This document shows positions 43,861 to 62,743 of a stretch of 64,000 nt of DNA, piece after piece. Position numbers and translations under genes: made by a program. The DNA is from Sulfuricurvum sp. (GTDB lineage Bacteria > Campylobacterota > Campylobacteria > Campylobacterales > Sulfurimonadaceae), in contig JBAZTZ010000009.1 in the NCBI GenBank assembly GCA_041661705.1, positions 9,050 to 73,049 on the forward strand, in the 5' to 3' direction. The first letter of the stretch is position 1. The number at the start of each line of letters is the position of its first letter. The notes beneath the pieces are model-generated. The model searched no databases, was not told the origin of the DNA, and saw only the letters and a program-made list of their open reading frames with translations.

Positions 43861-45894
43861 ATGATTAAATCAAGAAGAATAAAAAGTGGATATAAAATAC
43901 TCAAACTCGTAGTAGCATTCATAGCAATTACAAGTAATTACCTTATGGCAAATGACTTACCCAATGTCTGTAGTCGGGATCAAAATCCCAATGAATTTAC
44001 AATTCTGAGCTATCATGAAATAGCCAATAAAAGTGAGACATTGGATTCAACGTATGCGGTGACCCCAGCGAACTTTGATCAACAGATGCAGTGGCTAATA
44101 GATAATGGGTATCACTTTGTTGGTATAAATGATATTTTAAAGTATCGCAAAAGTGCAAAACCATTGCCAAATAAAGCAGTTCTAATTACCTTTGATGATG
44201 GGTATGAATCTGTTTATACGAATGCTTATCCTGTTTTGAAAAAATACAAAATTCCAACTGTCATTGCGCTCGTTGGGAATTGGATGAAAGCCAAAGATAA
44301 GGTCGATTTCGATGGACATCTGATTGATCGTAACAAATTTTTGAGTCAAGCTCAGATCAAGGAGATGGTCAGTAGCGGTCTTGTAGAAATTGCCAGCCAC
44401 AGCTGTGCTATGCACAAAGGTATCCCCGGAAATCCTCAAGGCAGTATGGAGCCCGCTCTTACCACTCGCCAATGGCTTGCTGATAAAAAAGGGTATGAGG
44501 ATGAAAAAACATATCAACAGCGAGTTTACAATGATCTATTGGAAAATAATACTTTTTTGAAACGCTATACAGGGCAACAACCCCGTGTCATGGTGTGGCC
44601 GTATGGACGTTATAATATTGAGGTTCGTAAAATTGCAGAGCGGTTAGGAATGAGTATCGGATTAACATTGGACGATGGTAGCAATACACGCACTACACCT
44701 TTATGGGGGGCTCGACGTATATTAGTAGAGGGTCAAATGACTCTTCAGGATTTGGATTTTCTTATGCGAATGCGAAGTGGTAATTTCACCGATGATGCGA
44801 GGACAACCAAAGCAGCTCATATCGACTTAGATTATATTTATGATCAAGATCCAGTCCAGCAGGAAAAAAATATCGGATTACTCCTTGATCGCCTCAAAAA
44901 ATTGGGGGTTAATACCGTTTATTTACAAGCTTTTGCTGACCCTGATGCCAATGGCGCAGCGGATTATGTCTATTTTCCAAACCGAAATATACCAATGCGT
45001 TCAAATCTCTTTAACCGAGTTTCATGGCAAATTGCCAAATGTACGCAGGTCAAGCGTGTTTATGCGTGGATGCCAATGCTTGCTTGGGAATTACCACAAA
45101 GCAATATGGCTTCCAAAGAGACGGTAGTGACATTGCAAGTTGATCCGACTCATCTTAATATGGGGTATCCAAGATTATCCCCTTTTTCACCCAAAGCTCG
45201 AAAAATTATTAAAGAAATTTATGAAGATTTGTCAAAATCAGCCTATATTGACGGAATCTTGTTTCATGACGATATAACACTGTCAGATTTTGAAGATGAC
45301 AGTACATTTGCGCATACTCAATATAAAAAGTGGGGATTGCCAGAAGATGTTATTAAAATCAGAACGGATCGAAAACAATTTAATAAATGGACTAAACTAA
45401 AAACACGTTATTTAGATGATTTTGCGATGGAATTAGCTCAAATTGTAAGAGATGAACAACCAGGACTCAAAACAGCCCGTAATTTATATGCACAAGTTGC
45501 TTTAAATAAGGATTCAGAAGAGTGGTATGCGCAAAGTTTGCAGGAATCAATAAAAAATTATGATTACACCGCAATTATGGCAATGCCGTATATGGAACAA
45601 GCTGGTGATCCAGAGCACTTTTTAGGTGAAATAGTTAAACATGTCAAACAAGAACAATGTGGGCTTGAACGTACCGTAATCGAGTTACAAACAGTAAATT
45701 GGAGAGAAAACAATGAACCGATTTCTTCCAAAGAATTGGATAGTACCATACGATATTTATATGGCTTAGGTGTTCATCACATTGCATATTATCCCGACAG
45801 TGTGTTTACCAATAATCCTGATGCCAATATGATGAATGAAGCGTTTACTCAAAAACCAGTGCGTATGCATCTGAATACCATCTTTAATAAATAA
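43861..45894 (+). CDS. pgaB: PNAG N-deacetylase/glycoside hydrolase PgaB (CE4 + GH153)
   Basis: LSYHEI, ITFDDGY, IASHS..MH, VWPYG, HIDLDYIYD, VYLQAFADPD, GILFHDD, KTARN, IMAMPYME, ELQTVNW. Confidence 0.95.
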   Translation: MIKSRRIKSGYKILKLVVAFIAITSNYLMANDLPNVCSRDQNPNEFTILSYHEIANKSETLDSTYAVTPANFDQQMQWLIDNGYHFVGINDILKYRKSAKPLPNKAVLITFDDGYESVYTNAYPVLKKYKIPTVIALVGNWMKAKDKVDFDGHLIDRNKFLSQAQIKEMVSSGLVEIASHSCAMHKGIPGNPQGSMEPALTTRQWLADKKGYEDEKTYQQRVYNDLLENNTFLKRYTGQQPRVMVWPYGRYNIEVRKIAERLGMSIGLTLDDGSNTRTTPLWGARRILVEGQMTLQDLDFLMRMRSGNFTDDARTTKAAHIDLDYIYDQDPVQQEKNIGLLLDRLKKLGVNTVYLQAFADPDANGAADYVYFPNRNIPMRSNLFNRVSWQIAKCTQVKRVYAWMPMLAWELPQSNMASKETVVTLQVDPTHLNMGYPRLSPFSPKARKIIKEIYEDLSKSAYIDGILFHDDITLSDFEDDSTFAHTQYKKWGLPEDVIKIRTDRKQFNKWTKLKTRYLDDFAMELAQIVRDEQPGLKTARNLYAQVALNKDSEEWYAQSLQESIKNYDYTAIMAMPYMEQAGDPEHFLGEIVKHVKQEQCGLERTVIELQTVNWRENNEPISSKELDSTIRYLYGLGVHHIAYYPDSVFTNNPDANMMNEAFTQKPVRMHLNTIFNK

Positions 45895-45903
45895 GAAGAA
45901 TCA

Positions 45904-47196
45904 ATGACGACTTTCACTATATTTTTGCATTTAGTATGGCATACACTCTTAGGTTTTATATTTTATTATCCACTTTTTATGTCAAGCTTGTGGATAGTAG
46001 GAGCGATCTTTTTTTATTTCAAAAATGAAAAGCCATATTCTAAATATACTATTCCACCCCTTAGAGGCAATGAACGTTGGGAGGGAGTTAGTATTTTAAT
46101 CCCTTGTTACAATGAAGGGCAAAATGCTATCGAAACCATTTCGTATGCGCTTAATGTTGACTACCCTGAATTTGAAGTCATTGCCATTAACGATGGTAGT
46201 AGTGACGATACACTGGAAATATTGGTCAATTTAGCAAAAAACAACCCTAATTTAAAAGTCGTTAATTTAGCTGAAAATCAGGGCAAAGCTTTGGGTCTTC
46301 AAGCTGGCGCATTATTGGCAAAGTATGAATACTTAGTATGTATTGATGGAGATGCCTTAATCGATAAAAATTGTGTTCATTGGATGGTAAAACATTTTAT
46401 CCGCTACCCCGAAGTTGCTGCCGTTACAGGGAATCCACGGATACGAAATCGCACGACGTTATTAGGGAAAATTCAAGTAGGTGAGTTTTCTTCTATCGTT
46501 GGTATGATTAAACGGGCACAGCGTAGTTTTGGACGGATATTTACTGTATCAGGGGTAATTACAGGATTTAGAAAAGCTGCGGTACACGAAGTGGGCTATT
46601 GGAGCCCCGATATGCTGACGGAAGATATTGATATTACTTGGAAGTTACAAAGCAACGGATGGGATGTTCGGTTTGAGCCTCGTGCTTTGGTATGGATATT
46701 GATGCCTGAAACATTGAGCGGACTATGGAAACAGCGTTTACGTTGGGCTATGGGTGGCGTTCAAGTAATGCTTAAAAATTTCAAAGTTTTATTTATGCCT
46801 AGACAAACGCATCTTTGGGGATTAATGGTTGAACTTATGTTAAGTACTCTATGGGCGTATAGTATGGTATTAGTATTTTTAGTCTGGTTTATTAGTCTAT
46901 TTGTTCCTCTTGGGTATTTAACGCCCGATCATTCCCCTATTCTCCCAGATCAAAGTAGTATTATTTTAATCGGTGCGTGTTTGGTGCAGTTTGGTGTTAG
47001 TAAATGGTTGGATGGTCACTATGATCAAGGTTTGGGAAAAAATTATTTTTGGATGATTTGGTATCCATTTGCTTATTGGTTGCTTAATTTATTTACCGCT
47101 GTAACCGCTCTTCCTAAGGTATTATTCGGTAAAAAAGGTCGTGCACGATGGGTTAGCCCTGACCGTGGTGCGCATCAAGAGATCAAAAAAGGTTAA
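45904..47196 (+). CDS. pgaC: PNAG synthase PgaC (GT2)
   Basis: IPCYNE, NDGSSD, DGD, TGNPRIRNR, TED, QRLRW, RARWVSPDRG and terminal TM helices. Confidence 0.96.
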   Translation: MTTFTIFLHLVWHTLLGFIFYYPLFMSSLWIVGAIFFYFKNEKPYSKYTIPPLRGNERWEGVSILIPCYNEGQNAIETISYALNVDYPEFEVIAINDGSSDDTLEILVNLAKNNPNLKVVNLAENQGKALGLQAGALLAKYEYLVCIDGDALIDKNCVHWMVKHFIRYPEVAAVTGNPRIRNRTTLLGKIQVGEFSSIVGMIKRAQRSFGRIFTVSGVITGFRKAAVHEVGYWSPDMLTEDIDITWKLQSNGWDVRFEPRALVWILMPETLSGLWKQRLRWAMGGVQVMLKNFKVLFMPRQTHLWGLMVELMLSTLWAYSMVLVFLVWFISLFVPLGYLTPDHSPILPDQSSIILIGACLVQFGVSKWLDGHYDQGLGKNYFWMIWYPFAYWLLNLFTAVTALPKVLFGKKGRARWVSPDRGAHQEIKKG

Positions 47197-47200
47197 GAAA

Positions 47201-47629
47201 ATGGAAACATTGATTATTAATAAACGCCGTGAGCTACCTAAAGCCAAACGGATAATTTGGGACATAATAACTATTTTACTCTGGTTAGGATTTTTCTATT
47301 TATGGAAACCTGTATTTCATGTATTTTATCGAATCATTACATTAGGTGCACCCGTAGAAGAGTTGTCCGATTGGATTTTTGGCGAAATTCACAGCGTCAC
47401 TTTCGAGAATGCACTCTATACGTTAATTGCAACGCCTATTGTATTATTTGTCTTGTCAAGACTAAATAGACACCAAGCCCCAAGTGAACATTTAATTTAT
47501 CATTCAACCGATTATTCAAATCATTTTAATGTCGACGATGCTCAATTGCAGCAGTGCGTAAGTAGCCAATTAATTACGGTTTACTTTGATGACCATGGGC
47601 ATATCATACGCCTAGAGAATCAAATCTAA
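47201..47629 (+). CDS. pgaD: PNAG biosynthesis protein PgaD
   Basis: Small two-TM protein directly after pgaC, with the C-terminal V.FDDHG.I pattern. Start placed at ATG 47201. Confidence 0.8.
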   Translation: METLIINKRRELPKAKRIIWDIITILLWLGFFYLWKPVFHVFYRIITLGAPVEELSDWIFGEIHSVTFENALYTLIATPIVLFVLSRLNRHQAPSEHLIYHSTDYSNHFNVDDAQLQQCVSSQLITVYFDDHGHIIRLENQI

Positions 47630-47640
47630 GGGAATACTAG

Positions 47641-50364
47641 TTACTTCAACTCACCCCAGTGATTCCCTATATTCATCGAAGTTTTTAGGGGAATACCTAA
47701 CATCATAATTCCCTCCATTAGCTCTACAAAACGGTTTGCATATTCTTCGGCAACCTCTTCATCGACTTCAAAAATAAGTTCATCATGGATTTGAAGAAGC
47801 ATTCGCACCCGTAGCCCTTCATTACGAATAACCGCATCAATTTTATTCATAGAGAGTTTAATAAGATCGGCAGCAGAACCTTGAAAAACGGCATTAACGG
47901 CTTCGCGCTCGTAAGCGGCTTTGAGCATAGGAGTAGCAGTTGCAAAATCAAAATAGCGTCGTCGGTGTAACAATGTCTCCACGTAACCTAACTCTTTGGC
48001 TTGCTCCACAATACGGCTAAAATATCCCTTGACACTTGGAAAGGTTTCGAAATAGCGCTCCATAATTGCTTTAGCTTCTTTCGTCGTGATTCCCAAGGTA
48101 TCGGAGAGTTTTTTCTGTCCCATACCGTAAAGGAGTCCAAAATTGACCGTTTTGGCAATACCACGCTTGAAGGGGGCTTCTGCCTCACCAAAAAGGGCTA
48201 TCGCCGTTTGTAAGTGAATATCACGCCCTTCATTAAAGGCGTTGACCAAGAGGGTATCTTGGCTGAAATGAGCAAGAAGTCGAAGTTCTATTTGCGAGTA
48301 GTCGATCCCAATCAGTTTTTTACCCACAGGAGCAACAAAAGCTTCTCGTATGCGCATCCCTAACGCTGTTTTTACAGGAATATTTTGGAGATTAGGATTT
48401 TTGGAGCTGAGTCTCCCCGTTGCCGTCCCCGTTTGGACAAAAGAGGTATAAATACGGGAATGATTATCCGCTTTTGACAATAAAATTAAAGGCTCAATAT
48501 AAGTCGAATAGAGCTTATGATATTCACGATATTGAAGGAGCATCGGGATAATCGCGTGCTCATTTTTCAACCCCTCTAGTACGGATTCATCGGTACTATA
48601 CCCTGTTTTTGTCTTTTTACCGTGGGGCAATCCCAATGTTTCAAATAATATCACCCCTAACTGTTTGGGGGAGTTGAGATTAAAGACGGTTCCAGCTACA
48701 GTATGGATATTTTCAGTAAGGGTTGTAAGCTCGTGTGCCACTTCTGTTTTAAATATCTCAAGAACATTGATGTCGATAGCAATCCCAGCGCGTTCCATCC
48801 CAAGCAAGGTGAGGAGAAAAGGAAACTCGACAGTATACGCTTCATCCAGTGCCTCCTGCCCTCCCTTAAGGAAAAGTTGTTCTCGTAATACTTCATAGAG
48901 TCGATAGGTGATATACGCATCTTCTCCTGCATACTTACACGCATCTTCAATGGCGACGGAACTGAAATTCTCCCCTTTTTTGACCGTATCTTTGAAATGG
49001 ATCATTTCATGATTGAGAAGAGTTTGACTAAGGCTATCCATTGCTAAGGAACGGTTAGAATCCCCAAGCCATGCAATGATGATAGTATCGGCGTAAATAG
49101 TGAGCGATTCAACCTCCAAAAATCGAGTAACGAAATGGAGATCAAATTTAAGATTATGCCCAATAACGCGGTAGTTAAAAATCTCACGTATCGCCTTACG
49201 TGCCACATCAGGAGAAACTTGTTCCCCAACTCCTAAATAATTATGCCCCATCGGAACATAGTACCCCGTTTTTCCATCCAAACTAAAACTAAATCCAACC
49301 AAGGTATCGGTATGAGGATTAAGCCCTGTTGTTTCGGTATCAAAGGCGATCAAGGAATCTTTTGGAATAGAGGAGAGAAGTGTTTCCAGTGCCGTATCTG
49401 TGTCGATAAGAAGTGTGCACCCTTGCGAACTCTCACATTTTGGTGTCTCAACCATCGTTATGACAGACGGAGCTTGCACAGGTTGTGACTCTTCAAAAAG
49501 TGCTCTTGCCTTGATAGTCCGCAATACTGCATTCATCTCATAATGAAGAAGCTCATCATAAATAGGGGCAAACGGATCATCAAAGTGCATTTTATACCCA
49601 TCGAAATCAAGAGTTTCAAAAACATCCCGATGAAGCTTTACCAGTTCACGAGAACGAAACGCATCATCACGGTACGTTTCCAAAAGTCCACGTATCCGAG
49701 GCGGTGTCACTTCATCCAGACGTTCATACATAGCATCCAGTGTTACGAACTGCTTTAAAAGCTTCTCTGCCGTTACTTTTCCGATTCCCTTAACACCGGG
49801 GACGTTATCCGCTGTATCCCCGATCAAGGATTGATAGTCAATAAACTGATACGGGTGTACTCCGTATTTTTCAAAACAGTGGGTCTCATTGAGAACTTTT
49901 TTCGTCATAGCATCAACGAGAACAACAACATCATCTTCAATGAGTTGATACAAATCCTTATCATGCGAAACAATTCGAACCAAAAAGCCTTTTTCTTTGG
50001 CATGTTTTACTACCGAAGCAATCATATCATCGGCTTCATATCCGCTCATCAATAGCGATTTATATCCCATTTTTTCAATCCAGCTGATTGCAATAGGAAG
50101 TTGTTTTATTAGCTCTTCGGGTGCTGGTTGACGATTAGCTTTATAGTTCGGGTCAATTTCAGCACGAAAACTAGGGCCTTTGGCATCAAGGGCGAAAATG
50201 AGATAATCACTGCTATGATCTTTGTGCAATGAGGCGATAAAATTAATAAAGCCTGTTAACAAACCTGTCGGAAAGCCATGCTTATTTTTAAGAGGTGGAA
50301 GCGCATAAAAACTGCGAAAAAAGAATCCAAATGTATCAATGATAGTAACTGTTTGTTGTGACAT
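47641..50364 (-). CDS. polA: DNA polymerase I
   Basis: 5'-3' exonuclease (YKANR, EADD, GDTADNVPGVKGIG), FDTETTG, TGRLSSKNPNLQNIP, DYSQIELR, AKTVNFG, QIHDEL. Confidence 0.99.
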   Translation of the reverse strand: MSQQTVTIIDTFGFFFRSFYALPPLKNKHGFPTGLLTGFINFIASLHKDHSSDYLIFALDAKGPSFRAEIDPNYKANRQPAPEELIKQLPIAISWIEKMGYKSLLMSGYEADDMIASVVKHAKEKGFLVRIVSHDKDLYQLIEDDVVVLVDAMTKKVLNETHCFEKYGVHPYQFIDYQSLIGDTADNVPGVKGIGKVTAEKLLKQFVTLDAMYERLDEVTPPRIRGLLETYRDDAFRSRELVKLHRDVFETLDFDGYKMHFDDPFAPIYDELLHYEMNAVLRTIKARALFEESQPVQAPSVITMVETPKCESSQGCTLLIDTDTALETLLSSIPKDSLIAFDTETTGLNPHTDTLVGFSFSLDGKTGYYVPMGHNYLGVGEQVSPDVARKAIREIFNYRVIGHNLKFDLHFVTRFLEVESLTIYADTIIIAWLGDSNRSLAMDSLSQTLLNHEMIHFKDTVKKGENFSSVAIEDACKYAGEDAYITYRLYEVLREQLFLKGGQEALDEAYTVEFPFLLTLLGMERAGIAIDINVLEIFKTEVAHELTTLTENIHTVAGTVFNLNSPKQLGVILFETLGLPHGKKTKTGYSTDESVLEGLKNEHAIIPMLLQYREYHKLYSTYIEPLILLSKADNHSRIYTSFVQTGTATGRLSSKNPNLQNIPVKTALGMRIREAFVAPVGKKLIGIDYSQIELRLLAHFSQDTLLVNAFNEGRDIHLQTAIALFGEAEAPFKRGIAKTVNFGLLYGMGQKKLSDTLGITTKEAKAIMERYFETFPSVKGYFSRIVEQAKELGYVETLLHRRRYFDFATATPMLKAAYEREAVNAVFQGSAADLIKLSMNKIDAVIRNEGLRVRMLLQIHDELIFEVDEEVAEEYANRFVELMEGIMMLGIPLKTSMNIGNHWGELK

Positions 50365-59152: not shown

Positions 59153-60814
59153 TTATATTATTATTTTCGGCAAACTAAAATAAAAACAACTTCCCTCTCC
59201 GACAACACTTTCAACCCATATTTTTCCACCATGAAGCTCAATTATTTTTTTGACAATCGTAAGCCCCAATCCTGTTCCTTTCATAGCGTCAGTTTGATGC
59301 TCACGGATTTGAACAAATGGGTTAAATAAAGTTTCAATTTTATCACTTGCAATCCCAGGACCATGATCTGCAATACCAAACACATCACTCTGCTCTTCAC
59401 GTCTATACAATAGAGTAATTATCTCAGATTCAGGTGAAAATTTAATGGCGTTAGTGAGTAAGTTTACCATTACTTGCTTGATCAGTTGACGATCTGCACG
59501 AATCAAAACGCCCTCTTCAATGTCTAATGAGAGAGTTAAATGTTTTTTATCCCCCATCGGTTCTACTAATATTTCAACCTCGCTGATTAAATCTTTCATA
59601 AGAAAAGGAGCAATATGCATATCCATTTTTCCCGCTTCAATTTTGGAAAAATCCAGAATCGTATTTACGAGAGAAAGGAGATTCTTCCCTGAAATGTGAA
59701 TTTTTTCGATAAACATTTTTATATTACTCGGGGTATCCGCTTTTGCAATCAAAATTTGAGAAAAACCTATAATAGCATTGAGTGGCGTACGTAACTCATG
59801 ACTCATGCTAGATAAGAAAGTGTCTTTGGCAAGGTTGGCTTCTTTCGCCTGATTCATTGCCGTTATCGCTTCATCACGTGCTAATTTCAATTCTTCTTGT
59901 ACACGTATACGTTCACTAATATTCTTTTTGACTGCAACAAGATGGGTCACTTTGCCACGCTCAATCAACGGTGTAACGGTCAACTCTTCAAAATAAACAT
60001 CCCCTGATTTTATTCGGCTTAAGATTTCTCCCTCCCAGACCTCACCATTCTTAACTTGATCCCAACATTCTTTTACTTGTATGGGATCATTAATTTTATC
60101 ATCTATTATAAATTGTGAGTTTTCACCAATAACATCTTCATTTTCATAGCCACTGTGACGGAGAAATTCTTTATTTGCATATTGAATATTTCCCTCATTA
60201 TCAGCGATCAACATCATAGTTGCCGTGGATTCAAGCGCAAGTTGCTGCAAATCTATCAACTCTTCCCGCTTTTGATCCAAGGAAATATCCGAAATCGAAA
60301 AGACTATCCCTTTTGGTAAGCCGTCATTTGTAATTGAATAGGCTGAATATCGAACAGGAATAGTGCTTCCAAGGGCATCATGTACCGATGTTTCCCCCTC
60401 TCTTCGACCAAATCCAACACCATATTCAATAATATTAGAAATCTCTTCATCGTCAATAAATTGGTCAATGTTGTGATCAATCATCTCATTTTCTGGACGT
60501 CCCAATAAGTAGCAGGCACTCTCATTCGAGAAAATAATATTCCCCTCTAAATCTACTGCAAAAAGACCCACACTCAGTGCATTCAGAATCGAATCGTGCA
60601 TCTCTTTATGTTGACGTTGAAGTAACTTATTCGCTTGTTCCAACTCTCGAGAGCTAACATCCAGTGTATTTTCTAAAAGACGACGTTCTTTTTCAGCTTC
60701 ATTATAAAAATCACTGACACTGTTTAAAAAAGGAGCTAATTCGTCGACCAATTCAGGGCGAATAAATCGACGCATTTGACGAATTAACAACCTATGATAG
60801 GACGACGGTTCCAT
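59153..60814 (-). CDS. Cytoplasmic PAS-PAS histidine kinase with an N-terminal helical extension (NahK-like)
   Basis: No TM segment. Two PAS domains, MSHELRTPLNAIIG, NLLTNAIKF, DHGPGI, GTGLGL. Confidence 0.93.
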   Translation of the reverse strand: MEPSSYHRLLIRQMRRFIRPELVDELAPFLNSVSDFYNEAEKERRLLENTLDVSSRELEQANKLLQRQHKEMHDSILNALSVGLFAVDLEGNIIFSNESACYLLGRPENEMIDHNIDQFIDDEEISNIIEYGVGFGRREGETSVHDALGSTIPVRYSAYSITNDGLPKGIVFSISDISLDQKREELIDLQQLALESTATMMLIADNEGNIQYANKEFLRHSGYENEDVIGENSQFIIDDKINDPIQVKECWDQVKNGEVWEGEILSRIKSGDVYFEELTVTPLIERGKVTHLVAVKKNISERIRVQEELKLARDEAITAMNQAKEANLAKDTFLSSMSHELRTPLNAIIGFSQILIAKADTPSNIKMFIEKIHISGKNLLSLVNTILDFSKIEAGKMDMHIAPFLMKDLISEVEILVEPMGDKKHLTLSLDIEEGVLIRADRQLIKQVMVNLLTNAIKFSPESEIITLLYRREEQSDVFGIADHGPGIASDKIETLFNPFVQIREHQTDAMKGTGLGLTIVKKIIELHGGKIWVESVVGEGSCFYFSLPKIII

Positions 60815-60824
60815 TAACTTTTCC

Positions 60825-61949
60825 TTATTCGTAAAGACTAACGAGTGTCATTGTTTGATTGTGAAGGGTACAGCGTGATTCACCTACCTCTGATAATTCC
60901 CCATACGAATAGAAACCTGTAATTATCGCTTTTTCTCCAAGTATTTCACGTATGATCTCAAGCTCTTCCTCACACAGTTGTCCCAGTACCAAACGTCTTC
61001 CTACGCAGCTTACGAGCAACACCAAAAATTCTTCATCATGATCAATTTTTGATGCCTCTGCCGCTAGTCCCGCATGCTCAATGAGACTATCCATATTTGT
61101 TTTCATTAATCGACAGAATCCACCATTTGGAATATCTCCCGCAAATGTCAAACTTTGTTTTTCTTCATCAATAGCAAGAAGGGTTCGGATTAATGGAGTC
61201 GAATTAATATTATTCCGAACGCTCATAGGGAAACGTAATCCACTCCCTGGTAATGAACTTGCAAACTCCCCCAAATAGCTTTTATACAGTTCAAGGGCAG
61301 GCTTATCGTCAATAGTATAGAGAGTATTCCCCTCAGAGTGTGTAATGCGACGTTCAGCTCCGAACTCTTCCCATCCCGCAGAACATCCACTTCGTGCACG
61401 AAGTGTCTCACCATAAATGCCAATAGCTGCAACGATCCCCGTTTCTGCCTTACCTTGCGCTATCACATACGTCGTCCCGAATCGTGTTCCATCACCCGCC
61501 ATACCGCCAGTTATACTAACGCCATCTGGTAATATATGCGACAATCCACGCGCCAATTCACTCCCATTGACGGTTAAACCATCGGACAGAATAAATACAT
61601 GGCGCAATGAATCTGAAATTAGCTCCTGTCCCAAAGAGATACCAAATTCTTCCATATCCGTAAAATCAGCCACTTTTTTAGAAACACAGCGTACTTGAGA
61701 GCGTTCAAATGATATGGCTGTAGCCACGGCATCAAGATCGCTAATTACTGTATCCATAACGCTACCTGAACTACTCGCACCAGCAATAATGGCGTTAGGA
61801 TATATATGACTTAACTCTTGATACCATTCTTGAGTGAGACAACATGGATGATCAAAAAATACTAAAACTAAATCTTTTTGTTCAGCCAAGGTTTTATCAA
61901 CAGCACTCCATCCAGCTTGCTCGCTCCATCGTATTTGTTCACTTTTCAT
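60825..61949 (-). CDS. Stand-alone FIST_N + FIST_C protein (NosP-like sensor)
   Basis: G.SSSG.V, ILSDGL.VNGS.L, GGMAGDG..F..T, SCVGRRLVLG, GFYSYGE, LHNQTMT. Confidence 0.92.
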   Translation of the reverse strand: MKSEQIRWSEQAGWSAVDKTLAEQKDLVLVFFDHPCCLTQEWYQELSHIYPNAIIAGASSSGSVMDTVISDLDAVATAISFERSQVRCVSKKVADFTDMEEFGISLGQELISDSLRHVFILSDGLTVNGSELARGLSHILPDGVSITGGMAGDGTRFGTTYVIAQGKAETGIVAAIGIYGETLRARSGCSAGWEEFGAERRITHSEGNTLYTIDDKPALELYKSYLGEFASSLPGSGLRFPMSVRNNINSTPLIRTLLAIDEEKQSLTFAGDIPNGGFCRLMKTNMDSLIEHAGLAAEASKIDHDEEFLVLLVSCVGRRLVLGQLCEEELEIIREILGEKAIITGFYSYGELSEVGESRCTLHNQTMTLVSLYE

Positions 61950-62743
61950 TTTTTCATCCTCTCCATTGTTGATTTCAATACTATAATTGCTTGATTAAAC
62001 GGTTCGGGTTCAAGACCAAAACTTTTTAATGCAGATAGTGCTTTTGTAGCACTTTCCTCACTTAAAGATTCCCGAATATTGATCGCTTCTTGTATAACAT
62101 AAAGAATTTTACCCTCTAATGTCGCTGATTTTGCATTCACATTCGATAGCATCTCAATCAATTCAGGGTCAAAATTCCAATGCGCGAACATCATAGCCGC
62201 TATTTCATAACTATTCATCCCTAAAAAGGACTTCTCGACTTCTATAATTGATTTACCCAATAAAAGTTCAGCCAAAAAACTTTCTTGATTGCCTATCATA
62301 ACAAGTTTACGCGAAGCAATTAGCTTGCCCAATTCCATCAAAAAAACTCCACTCGTTAACAAAGGGAGAAGTTGTTTATCAACCCGAGTAATCCACTCTG
62401 TCAGAAGTAACATTTGACATTCTGATGTTTCGGTAAGAATATCAATCGTAATACCATAAGGTTGAAGATCTATTGGTATCGCTTTTTTGATAGCATTAGC
62501 TGCTGCAAATCCTCGTATCATAGCAACACCAAAAAGCATCACAGCTTGTCGAATCGAACCTATCCCTTTGCTCATTCCGTAAAGAGGAGAGTTGACGGAC
62601 TTAAGAATATTAGCACTAAGCATAGGATCACTTTCGATCACTCGTGTTAGCGCAGAAATATTCACCTCTTTCTCCATACACAACTGTTGAATACGTACAA
62701 TTGATGCAGGCAGTGGGGGTAAACTTTTAATTTCTTTTTCCAA
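61946..62743 (-). CDS. Stand-alone HDOD-domain protein
   Basis: SLPPLP, DPMLSANILKSVNSPLYG, AVMLFG, FLMELGK (degenerate HD), HWNF. AGGAGG RBS, TTG start, ATGA overlap with the FIST gene. Confidence 0.9.
   Translation of the reverse strand: MEKEIKSLPPLPASIVRIQQLCMEKEVNISALTRVIESDPMLSANILKSVNSPLYGMSKGIGSIRQAVMLFGVAMIRGFAAANAIKKAIPIDLQPYGITIDILTETSECQMLLLTEWITRVDKQLLPLLTSGVFLMELGKLIASRKLVMIGNQESFLAELLLGKSIIEVEKSFLGMNSYEIAAMMFAHWNFDPELIEMLSNVNAKSATLEGKILYVIQEAINIRESLSEESATKALSALKSFGLEPEPFNQAIIVLKSTMERMKK

Follow-up and report, generated by a model that had tools for sequence, protein, structure and literature searches.

A stand-alone FIST protein and the conserved N-terminal module of its partner kinase in a signalling operon of Sulfuricurvum

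The 64,000-nucleotide stretch of Sulfuricurvum DNA analysed here (hereafter the window; contig region G000:C9:9050-73049 of a 2.5 Mb genome in 53 contigs) encodes near its end an HDOD protein, a stand-alone FIST protein and a histidine kinase, and the relation between the last two is the subject of this work. The FIST protein is probably an accessory sensor that controls its kinase through a module at the kinase N-terminus and that, together with a globin-coupled kinase of the same operon, would feed an HD-GYP phosphodiesterase. Of all that the analysis yielded, this N-terminal module, specific to FIST partners, is the lead of greatest use. In the analysis domains were called with Pfam, family membership was judged by the curated cut-offs of NCBIfam and the literature was covered by full-text searches.

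The module comprises approximately 75 residues with the pattern MHRLLxRQLKR ... FLxxVxxAY ... LERSLELSSxEL. In the kinase of the window it opens with a short basic helix, ‘YHRLLIRQMRRF’, and continues as a single long helix, ‘FLNSVSDFYNEAEKERRLLENTLDVSSRELEQANKLL...’. An earlier reading of this DNA, made from the sequence only, had quoted the helical N-terminus of the kinase as a possible docking site; the segment is present as quoted, and AlphaFold2 predicts it to be helical. The same architecture was predicted for 77 diverse modules, with a short helix at residues 8–17 and a long helix at residues 20–77 (predicted local distance difference test score, pLDDT, 93), and L9, L10, R12, Q13, Y37 and E57 are near-invariant among them. 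Pfam holds no family for the module; at most three of the 77 members match any one family and all of these matches are coiled-coil noise. The full-text literature searches returned few papers on FIST together with kinases and none describing an N-terminal module on FIST partners.

The association between this module and FIST genes is very strong, and it holds in both search directions, which bears out the co-occurrence envisaged in the sequence-only reading. Starting from FIST, species genomes were scanned with the FIST alignment to look outside the phylum, which gave at least 590 relatives, and the best 80 loci (42–55 % identity) were counted. These span more than 15 phyla and come from Gallionellaceae, Bacteroidota, Planctomycetota, Acidobacteriota, Nitrospirota, Chloroflexota, Cyanobacteriota, Gemmatimonadota, Verrucomicrobiota, Spirochaetota and others. 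A module gene directly follows FIST in 78 of these 80 loci, beginning 0–52 nucleotides past the stop codon (161 in one), and in those 78 the module is found nowhere else in the locus. Among 301 Campylobacterota genomes, 16 carry a stand-alone FIST orthologue (37–50 % identity), and in all 16 loci the next gene encodes the module, overlapping FIST or starting a few nucleotides later; the window kinase itself matches the module profile at its N-terminus with an E-value of 1.0e-23, 10 nucleotides past FIST. Starting from the module, 16 of the 17 strong matches in Campylobacterota, one per genome, are preceded by FIST, and so are, by a FIST gene of the same clade as that of the window, 24 of 28 matches in 301 Gammaproteobacteria genomes, including every match with E < 1e-13. 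Against a library of 1.84 billion representative sequences the profile retrieved 5,564 representative clusters (3,492 at E ≤ 1e-10), and in the 150 best of them the module starts at residues 1–29 of proteins whose length ranges from 71 to 1646 residues.

What lies behind the module varies widely. The outputs include HisKA kinases, HisKA_2/HWE kinases, hybrid kinases, PAS arrays, GGDEF-EAL enzymes and SpoIIE phosphatases, and the module also occurs alone; within Campylobacterota the remainder of the protein may be a 950-residue hybrid kinase, a short kinase or a GGDEF-EAL enzyme. The module behaves as a portable unit that stays constant while the type of output changes, and the sequence comparisons make it most likely that it is the element coupling FIST to its partner. 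Two of its rarer forms may be mentioned here: three Bacteroidota loci (L060, L064 and L095) have the module fused to a SpoIIE/PP2C phosphatase, and two others (L099 and L120) encode a bare module protein of 83–114 residues with no output domain.

Proteins in which FIST and output form one polypeptide offer a comparison. Their FIST_C domain ends in ‘LNQTMTVLALSES’ and approximately 25 residues further on the pattern ‘...ALSHLINVSSGELEVLN..L’ follows. In three of nine proteins the helix after the fused FIST_C gives a match to the module's second half (E 5e-6 to 9e-4), and the ‘ALSHLINVSSGELEVLN’ pattern is present in all of them, while the basic first helix, ‘HRLLxRQLKR’, occurs only in the split systems. 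One such fused protein is encoded in the same genome as the window: the second FIST gene, on contig G000:C30 (L024 4926-6926, minus strand), specifies 666 residues with FIST_N, FIST_C, HisKA and HATPase_c, belongs to the fused sister clade and has three response regulators and two further kinases as cluster neighbours. A search for Rosetta-stone proteins, in which FIST would be fused to its own module partner, found none, and the fused FIST-output proteins provide the weaker argument that is left. Two Myxococcota proteins (P0080 and P0086), considered as candidates, turned out to be tandem FIST-FIST proteins, in which two FIST_N + FIST_C units of the window's clade stand on one chain, and the apparent fusion at L096 was due to an overlapping out-of-frame open reading frame (ORF).

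The resemblance to the linker helix of the fused proteins, and the prediction of one long helix of the kind typical of coiled-coil stalks, could also be taken to mean that the module is only a dimerisation or signalling helix, and that FIST acts elsewhere, for example on the HDOD protein, the globin-coupled kinase or the phosphotransfer (DHp) domain, or is merely co-inherited with the kinase gene. Other partners of FIST are conceivable, given that HDOD lies directly upstream of FIST both in Sulfuricurvum and at locus L085, where no module gene is present. This explanation is nevertheless quite improbable. An ordinary stalk would be restricted neither to the neighbours of one FIST clade nor to a constant form across kinase, GGDEF-EAL and SpoIIE outputs, and only the split systems have the additional basic helix, in which L, L, R and Q are near-invariant.

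The FIST–kinase pair is part of a larger transcriptional arrangement, in which all genes lie on the minus strand (Table 1). The HDOD–FIST–kinase set makes up the distal three genes of a signalling operon of six, which continues past the end of the window and reads, in order, REC-HD-GYP, REC, globin-coupled hybrid kinase, HDOD, FIST and kinase (REC, receiver domain). From the REC-HD-GYP gene to the kinase every gap is at most 14 nucleotides or the genes overlap: the 124-residue REC overlaps the start of the globin kinase by 4 nucleotides, the TTG start of HDOD lies 14 nucleotides past the stop of the hybrid kinase and has an AAGGAGG box, an ATGA at 61949-61946 serves both the stop of HDOD and the start of FIST, and the TAA stop of FIST is separated from the ATG of the kinase by 10 nucleotides (ggaaaagtta). 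The last two junctions are as the sequence-only reading had given them. A Shine-Dalgarno-like purine run precedes each of the HDOD, FIST and kinase starts. Upstream, uvrA precedes the REC-HD-GYP gene across a gap of 103 nucleotides; promoter and terminator scans yielded matches at or below chance level, and they are hence uninformative on the limits of the operon.

The order REC-HD_5, REC, Protoglobin kinase, FIST, kinase recurs on four Sulfuricurvum contigs from different samples, with different flanks. Of these contigs three have HDOD, and one lineage is without it. The HDOD gene is present in the relatives at L152, L154, L155 and L110 and missing from those at L156 and L157, and the kinase exists in two length forms within Sulfuricurvum, one of 553–558 residues with PAS-PAS and another, in sister genomes, of 321–331 residues without PAS. 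The HDOD gene and the PAS pair of the kinase are, in consequence, optional parts of a conserved cluster. Among the 80 diverse FIST loci, the combination of a globin kinase with a FIST–kinase pair is found only in the Sulfuricurvum locus (L110).

The sequence-only reading had described the kinase that adjoins FIST as a soluble PAS-PAS kinase and had also spoken of a hybrid kinase. Two PAS regions were found in the protein next to FIST, followed by HisKA and HATPase_c; a receiver domain is absent and the protein is therefore not a hybrid. No hydrophobic segment was seen in it by eye, no transmembrane predictor having been run. The hybrid kinase of the operon is the gene upstream of HDOD, outside 59153-62743, whose full ORF of 778 residues was recovered from the source contig (L023 1808-4144, minus strand). 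It matches Protoglobin (PF11563, 46.5 bits, cut-off 25), HisKA (70.3 bits), HATPase_c (94.8 bits) and, weakly, REC (31 bits), and some 240 residues between the globin and DHp domains have no assigned domain. The globin domain aligns to the Geobacter sensor 2W31 (E 5.6e-7) and to HemAT 1OR4, and it keeps the histidine of ‘GEIHIAIGLEP’, aligned with that of HemAT ‘SIHLRIGLLP’, which is presumably the proximal haem ligand. To judge from these matches, the recognisable haem sensor of the operon is the globin-coupled kinase. The DHp domains of the two kinases are identical at 48 of 74 positions, with 19 consecutive identical residues around the phosphorylated histidine. The first gene of the operon encodes a REC-HD-GYP protein of 368 residues with REC and HD_5 (119.5 bits), whose motifs are intact (‘PLHDIGK’ and ‘HHEKIDGTGYP’).

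The HDOD protein covers nearly the whole of its family model (PF08668, 95.3 bits, cut-off 22.9, model positions 1–192 of 196). HDOD domains are related to HD-GYP but lack catalysis, and how they work has yet to be established; one HDOD protein, SadB, binds cyclic di-GMP (c-di-GMP) (PMC6543031). An HDOD gene lies at most 3.5 kb from FIST in 6 of the 80 diverse loci. In one of them, L085 (2363-4646), from a Pseudomonadota metagenome-assembled genome, HDOD is directly upstream of a FIST gene of the window's clade, and the next gene is NikR-like, with no N-module; L085 is a second, independent HDOD–FIST adjacency. This pattern may point to an accessory role for HDOD that recurs without being essential. 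A further arrangement, HDOD, polA, FIST and then N-module-GGDEF-EAL, was observed in a member of the Sulfurimonadaceae (G041; L034 5249-11505); in the window polA (47641-50364) lies approximately 9 kb downstream of the FIST cluster, beside pgaBCD.

The FIST protein itself has no domain other than FIST_N (PF08495, 135 bits, cut-off 23.2, residues 26–216) and FIST_C (PF10442, 112.5 bits, cut-off 28.5, residues 218–353). In a maximum likelihood tree of 86 FIST domains (IQ-TREE, SH-aLRT supports) it falls in a stand-alone clade of 61 rows with a support of 99, and the fused FIST-output proteins are the sister group of that clade (joint support 95). The stand-alone clade, a very large one, has the C-terminal signature GFYSYGE...CxLHNQTMT, and the protein of the window has all of the clade-invariant residues; no published name was found for this stand-alone clade with its N-module partner. 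Invariant across all three FIST clades are D153, R255, C315, R318, Y349, E351 and N364-Q365-T366, which likely line a common pocket, while the residues specific to the window clade include W14, Y179, W193, R200, Y347, C360 and H363. Within the tree the Sulfuricurvum FIST groups with those of Gallionellaceae (support 96), apart from the other Campylobacterota, which themselves fall in two further sub-clades; this grouping suggests horizontal transfer between sulfur- and iron-oxidisers of shared habitats.

Given that a FIST protein next to a histidine kinase recalls the nitric oxide (NO) sensor NosP, the sequence-only reading had proposed a NosP/NahK-type system. What stands of that proposal is the layout of an accessory sensor beside its kinase, which is like that of the characterised systems (PMC12570481, PMC8846402); membership of the family does not stand, by cut-offs, by the tree and by the kinases of true NosP genes, which lack the motif. 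The match to the NosP equivalog model NF041558 extends over the full length (residues 17–369 on model positions 15–364) and is significant (E 3.4e-14), though weak, at 52.7 bits for a cut-off of 450; Campylobacterota FIST orthologues score 68–72 bits. The 553-residue kinase reaches 141.9 bits on the NahK model NF041831 (cut-off 1500) and 157.7 bits on the NahK/ErcS C-terminal model NF041832 (cut-off 400), and its matches to the NahK models are confined to the kinase core. NosR (NF053512) is the best NCBIfam match of the REC-HD-GYP protein, at 157.9 bits for a cut-off of 400. The values for NosP, NahK and NosR are all far under the curated cut-offs. The ‘nitric_RR_NosR’ model is, besides, a broad one, and its name takes in far more than regulators linked to NosP: a protein above its cut-off is present in 71 of 401 Burkholderiales genomes, and FIST adjoins in only 1 of the 30 best loci (L160 of L158-L187).

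The separation is equally marked when it is approached from the side of NosP. In 350 Gammaproteobacteria genomes two genes pass the NosP cut-off (556 and 602 bits) and ten more score 229–419 bits; on the profile of the window family, the genes of the NosP clade score 35–96 bits, with two undetected, and conversely genes with 75–92 bits on the NosP model score 405–497 bits on that profile. On the FIST tree the NosP clade (SH-aLRT 95) is set apart by long branches, while the window clade is sister to the fused proteins. The kinases beside true NosP genes lack the N-module in a search with hidden Markov models; they start with a different helix, ‘LExENxRLxKINxxLIxRVE...F....L...V.ERT..L’, and its homology to the module was rejected, at an hhalign probability of 7.6 %. 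Four Gammaproteobacteria genomes (G379, G576, G411 and G330) possess both a NosP-clade FIST–kinase pair and a separate N-module locus (L124/L200, L125/L196, L128/L197 and L132/L211, respectively). The module locus is a FIST/N-module pair in three of them, and in G330 (L211) it is a weak match with no FIST upstream. The presence of both systems at separate loci of one genome suggests that they respond to different signals.

For Burkholderia pseudomallei the comparison relied on published primers, which give six C-terminal residues of NosP and eight N-terminal residues of NosK, the latter too few for the module. The NosP peptide, TLTGIV, from a deletion primer, fits the ‘NQT[FL]TG[IV]’ of the NosP clade and not the ‘NQTMT[LI]T’ of the window clade; no Burkholderia names were among the homologues retrieved with a Burkholderiales member as seed. 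By its scores and its place on the tree, the FIST protein of the window is a member of a sister family and not a NosP equivalog, and the binding of haem or NO therefore cannot be deduced by orthology. That it forms a true NosP/NahK system, in which a haem-binding FIST would sense NO and either inhibit or activate the kinase, is unlikely, despite the core FIST residues common to all clades and a histidine that lies beside the C-terminal NQT motif in both stand-alone clades, offset by one residue. By analogy, haem or NO may still be considered possible ligands.

The FIST protein could also sense a small molecule or metabolite other than haem, perhaps at an enzyme-like site, and report it to the kinase via the same module. 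The AlphaFold2 model of the protein (pLDDT 94, predicted template modelling score, pTM, 0.92) has as its best structural match the FIST domain of human FBXO22 (template modelling score, TM, 0.56), and a sequence search of the PDB yielded spurious ARL3 matches only and no FIST structure from bacteria. The closest folds other than FIST are small-molecule enzymes, chorismatase and cyanuric acid hydrolase (TM approximately 0.35–0.4, E 4e-6 to 1e-3). The polar residues that are invariant across the FIST clades are as expected of a common binding pocket, and the original description of FIST, by Borziak and Zhulin in 2007, is said to have proposed small ligands such as amino acids. A review finds that little is known of how FIST-FIST_C domains bind ligands and pass on the signal (PMC8846402). 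On the other side, the fold similarity outside FBXO22 is weak, the gene neighbourhood points to no ligand and the published biochemistry of FIST deals with haem and NO only. A non-haem ligand is, on balance, a serious possibility that falls short of being probable.

Several known systems help to place the operon. The NosR-NosP-NosK system (BPSS1648/1647/1646 of B. pseudomallei, and B. thailandensis) shares with the window the order of a REC-HD-GYP protein, a stand-alone FIST and a soluble kinase, which in NosK has no recognised sensor domain; according to the published primers the nosP stop overlaps the nosK start. NosP binds NosK and changes its autophosphorylation (PMC12570481). This three-gene order exists within the FIST clade of the window as well, in Sulfurimonas, Gallionellaceae and other loci. 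The differences are that the FIST of the window is of another clade; that its kinase has the N-module and two PAS; that the motifs of NosR are degenerate (HG-GTP), whereas the HD-GYP motifs of the window are intact; and that REC, the globin hybrid kinase and HDOD stand between the HD-GYP gene and FIST in the window. NosP-NahK (P. aeruginosa PA1975/PA1976, with Legionella and Shewanella homologues) also consists of a stand-alone FIST co-cistronic with a histidine kinase, and it has been linked to the control of biofilm and c-di-GMP (PMC11784011, PMC8846402); unlike NahK, the window kinase is not a hybrid, and the cut-offs of the NosP, NahK and NahK/ErcS C-terminal models are all missed.

Globin-coupled sensors (the kinase AfGcHK of Anaeromyxobacter, 5OHE/6OTD; GsGCS, 2W31; HemAT, 1OR4) have, as does the 778-residue kinase, an N-terminal globin with a conserved ‘IHxxIGL’ histidine. 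The 778-residue protein differs in being a hybrid, with a weak receiver, and in sharing its operon with a FIST–kinase pair whose DHp is nearly identical. The sampled fused FIST-output proteins (FIST-kinase and FIST-PAS-GGDEF-EAL) form the sister clade, with sensor and output on one polypeptide and no ‘HRLLxRQLKR’; CdpA of V. cholerae is the studied example of this architecture. Finally, H-NOX/HnoK with HnoB/HnoD of Shewanella and Vibrio follows the same logic, in that a stand-alone sensor acts on an adjacent kinase, which acts on c-di-GMP phosphodiesterase regulators with converging inputs (PMC8846402), although the sensor fold is unrelated and the cluster of the window has no H-NOX gene. The operon thus brings together a FIST from the very large, uncharacterised sister family of the NosP systems, a globin-coupled kinase specific to Sulfuricurvum and HDOD as an optional member.

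The mechanism proposed for the operon is as follows. FIST would be synthesised together with the kinase, whose gene starts 10 bp further on, and it would bind the first 75 or so residues of the kinase and thereby set its autophosphorylation; both the docking and the direction of control are drawn from the precedent of B. pseudomallei, where the neighbouring kinase NosK, in which no sensor domain is recognised, is bound and inhibited by NosP (PMC12570481). The short basic helix of the module would be folded back on the long helix, which would run into the PAS and the DHp stalk. The two kinases most likely phosphorylate the same receivers, those of the REC-HD-GYP protein and of the single REC, as suggested by their near-identical DHp helices. 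It is well known from two-component systems that the DHp residues near the histidine determine the choice of partner. Two inputs, a gas signal read by the haem globin and the signal of FIST, would in this way converge on the hydrolysis of c-di-GMP. A broader version, in which the module is a dedicated FIST receptor or portable socket across more than 15 phyla, able to connect one kind of sensor to kinases, c-di-GMP enzymes, PP2C phosphatases and other outputs, and the Sulfuricurvum kinases form a two-sensor unit, possibly a heterodimer, merging O2/NO-type haem and FIST signals on one HD-GYP, is put forward tentatively, with somewhat less than even confidence.

A number of observations count against the proposal that FIST controls its kinase through the module and, with the globin kinase, feeds the phosphodiesterase. 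The association has exceptions: an orphan kinase of 317 residues in one Campylobacterota genome (G264:C16; L039 6868-7821) has gpmA upstream, four weak module matches in Gammaproteobacteria are without FIST, and two of the 80 FIST loci (L071 and L085) have no module gene. The module may have been kept merely as a shared coiled-coil stalk inherited with the neighbouring gene. Phosphotransfer to the HD-GYP regulator is deduced from gene order and DHp similarity only, the HDOD gene has no role in the scheme, and no Hpt domain was found in the cluster, which leaves the hybrid kinase's own weak receiver without a clear role.

The sequence-only reading had also pointed, as a speculation, to the nearby c-di-GMP-dependent pgaBCD cassette as a plausible target of the system. 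The genes are real, as Pfam finds Polysacc_deac_1 and GHL13 in PgaB, a family 2 glycosyltransferase in PgaC and PgaD at 106.8 bits; synteny with the FIST cluster is missing in relatives, no pga genes being found within 9 kb of the related FIST clusters, and the link stays speculative. The connection with c-di-GMP is better grounded in the operon itself, because it encodes its own HD-GYP enzyme.

Downstream of the 553-residue kinase, a 966-residue kinase and a 358-residue response regulator were considered as further members of the operon and rejected, as they are not downstream of the cluster in relatives and the H-box of the 966-residue kinase differs (HQWRQPL). The response regulator, in which Pfam matches nothing over approximately 230 C-terminal residues, is probably the partner of the 966-residue kinase.

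Table 1. Coordinates of the genes and segments discussed, in window numbering.
Feature	Position	Strand	Basis or remark
Globin-coupled hybrid kinase, C-terminal 413 codons of 778 residues	62758..64000	-	N-terminus past the window end
HDOD protein, 265 residues, TTG start	61946..62743	-	PF08668
FIST_N + FIST_C protein, 374 residues	60825..61949	-	Pfam, family alignments, tree
Kinase N-terminal module, residues 1-78	60581..60814	-	Profile matches, predicted fold
Histidine kinase, 553 residues: N-module, PAS, PAS, HisKA, HATPase_c	59153..60814	-	Pfam
NMT1/SBP_bac_3-TM-PAS histidine kinase, 966 residues	56201..59101	-	Pfam; 51 nucleotides downstream of the 553-residue kinase
Response regulator, 358 residues	55132..56208	-	Overlaps the 966-residue kinase by 8 nucleotides
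pgaB, pgaC, pgaD, poly-N-acetylglucosamine synthesis	43861..47629	+	Pfam

FIST is among the most widespread sensor domains of bacteria. If the module is the contact site of FIST, it would provide a sequence marker for the cognate outputs of thousands of stand-alone FIST sensors, as well as a short, defined peptide for binding and structural studies. It would also draw a clear line between the NosP systems and a much larger, uncharacterised sister family that is now read as ‘NosP-like’ by analogy. For Sulfuricurvum, a sulfur-oxidising organism of groundwater, the operon suggests that a gas sensor of the haem-globin type and a second cue together set the turnover of c-di-GMP.

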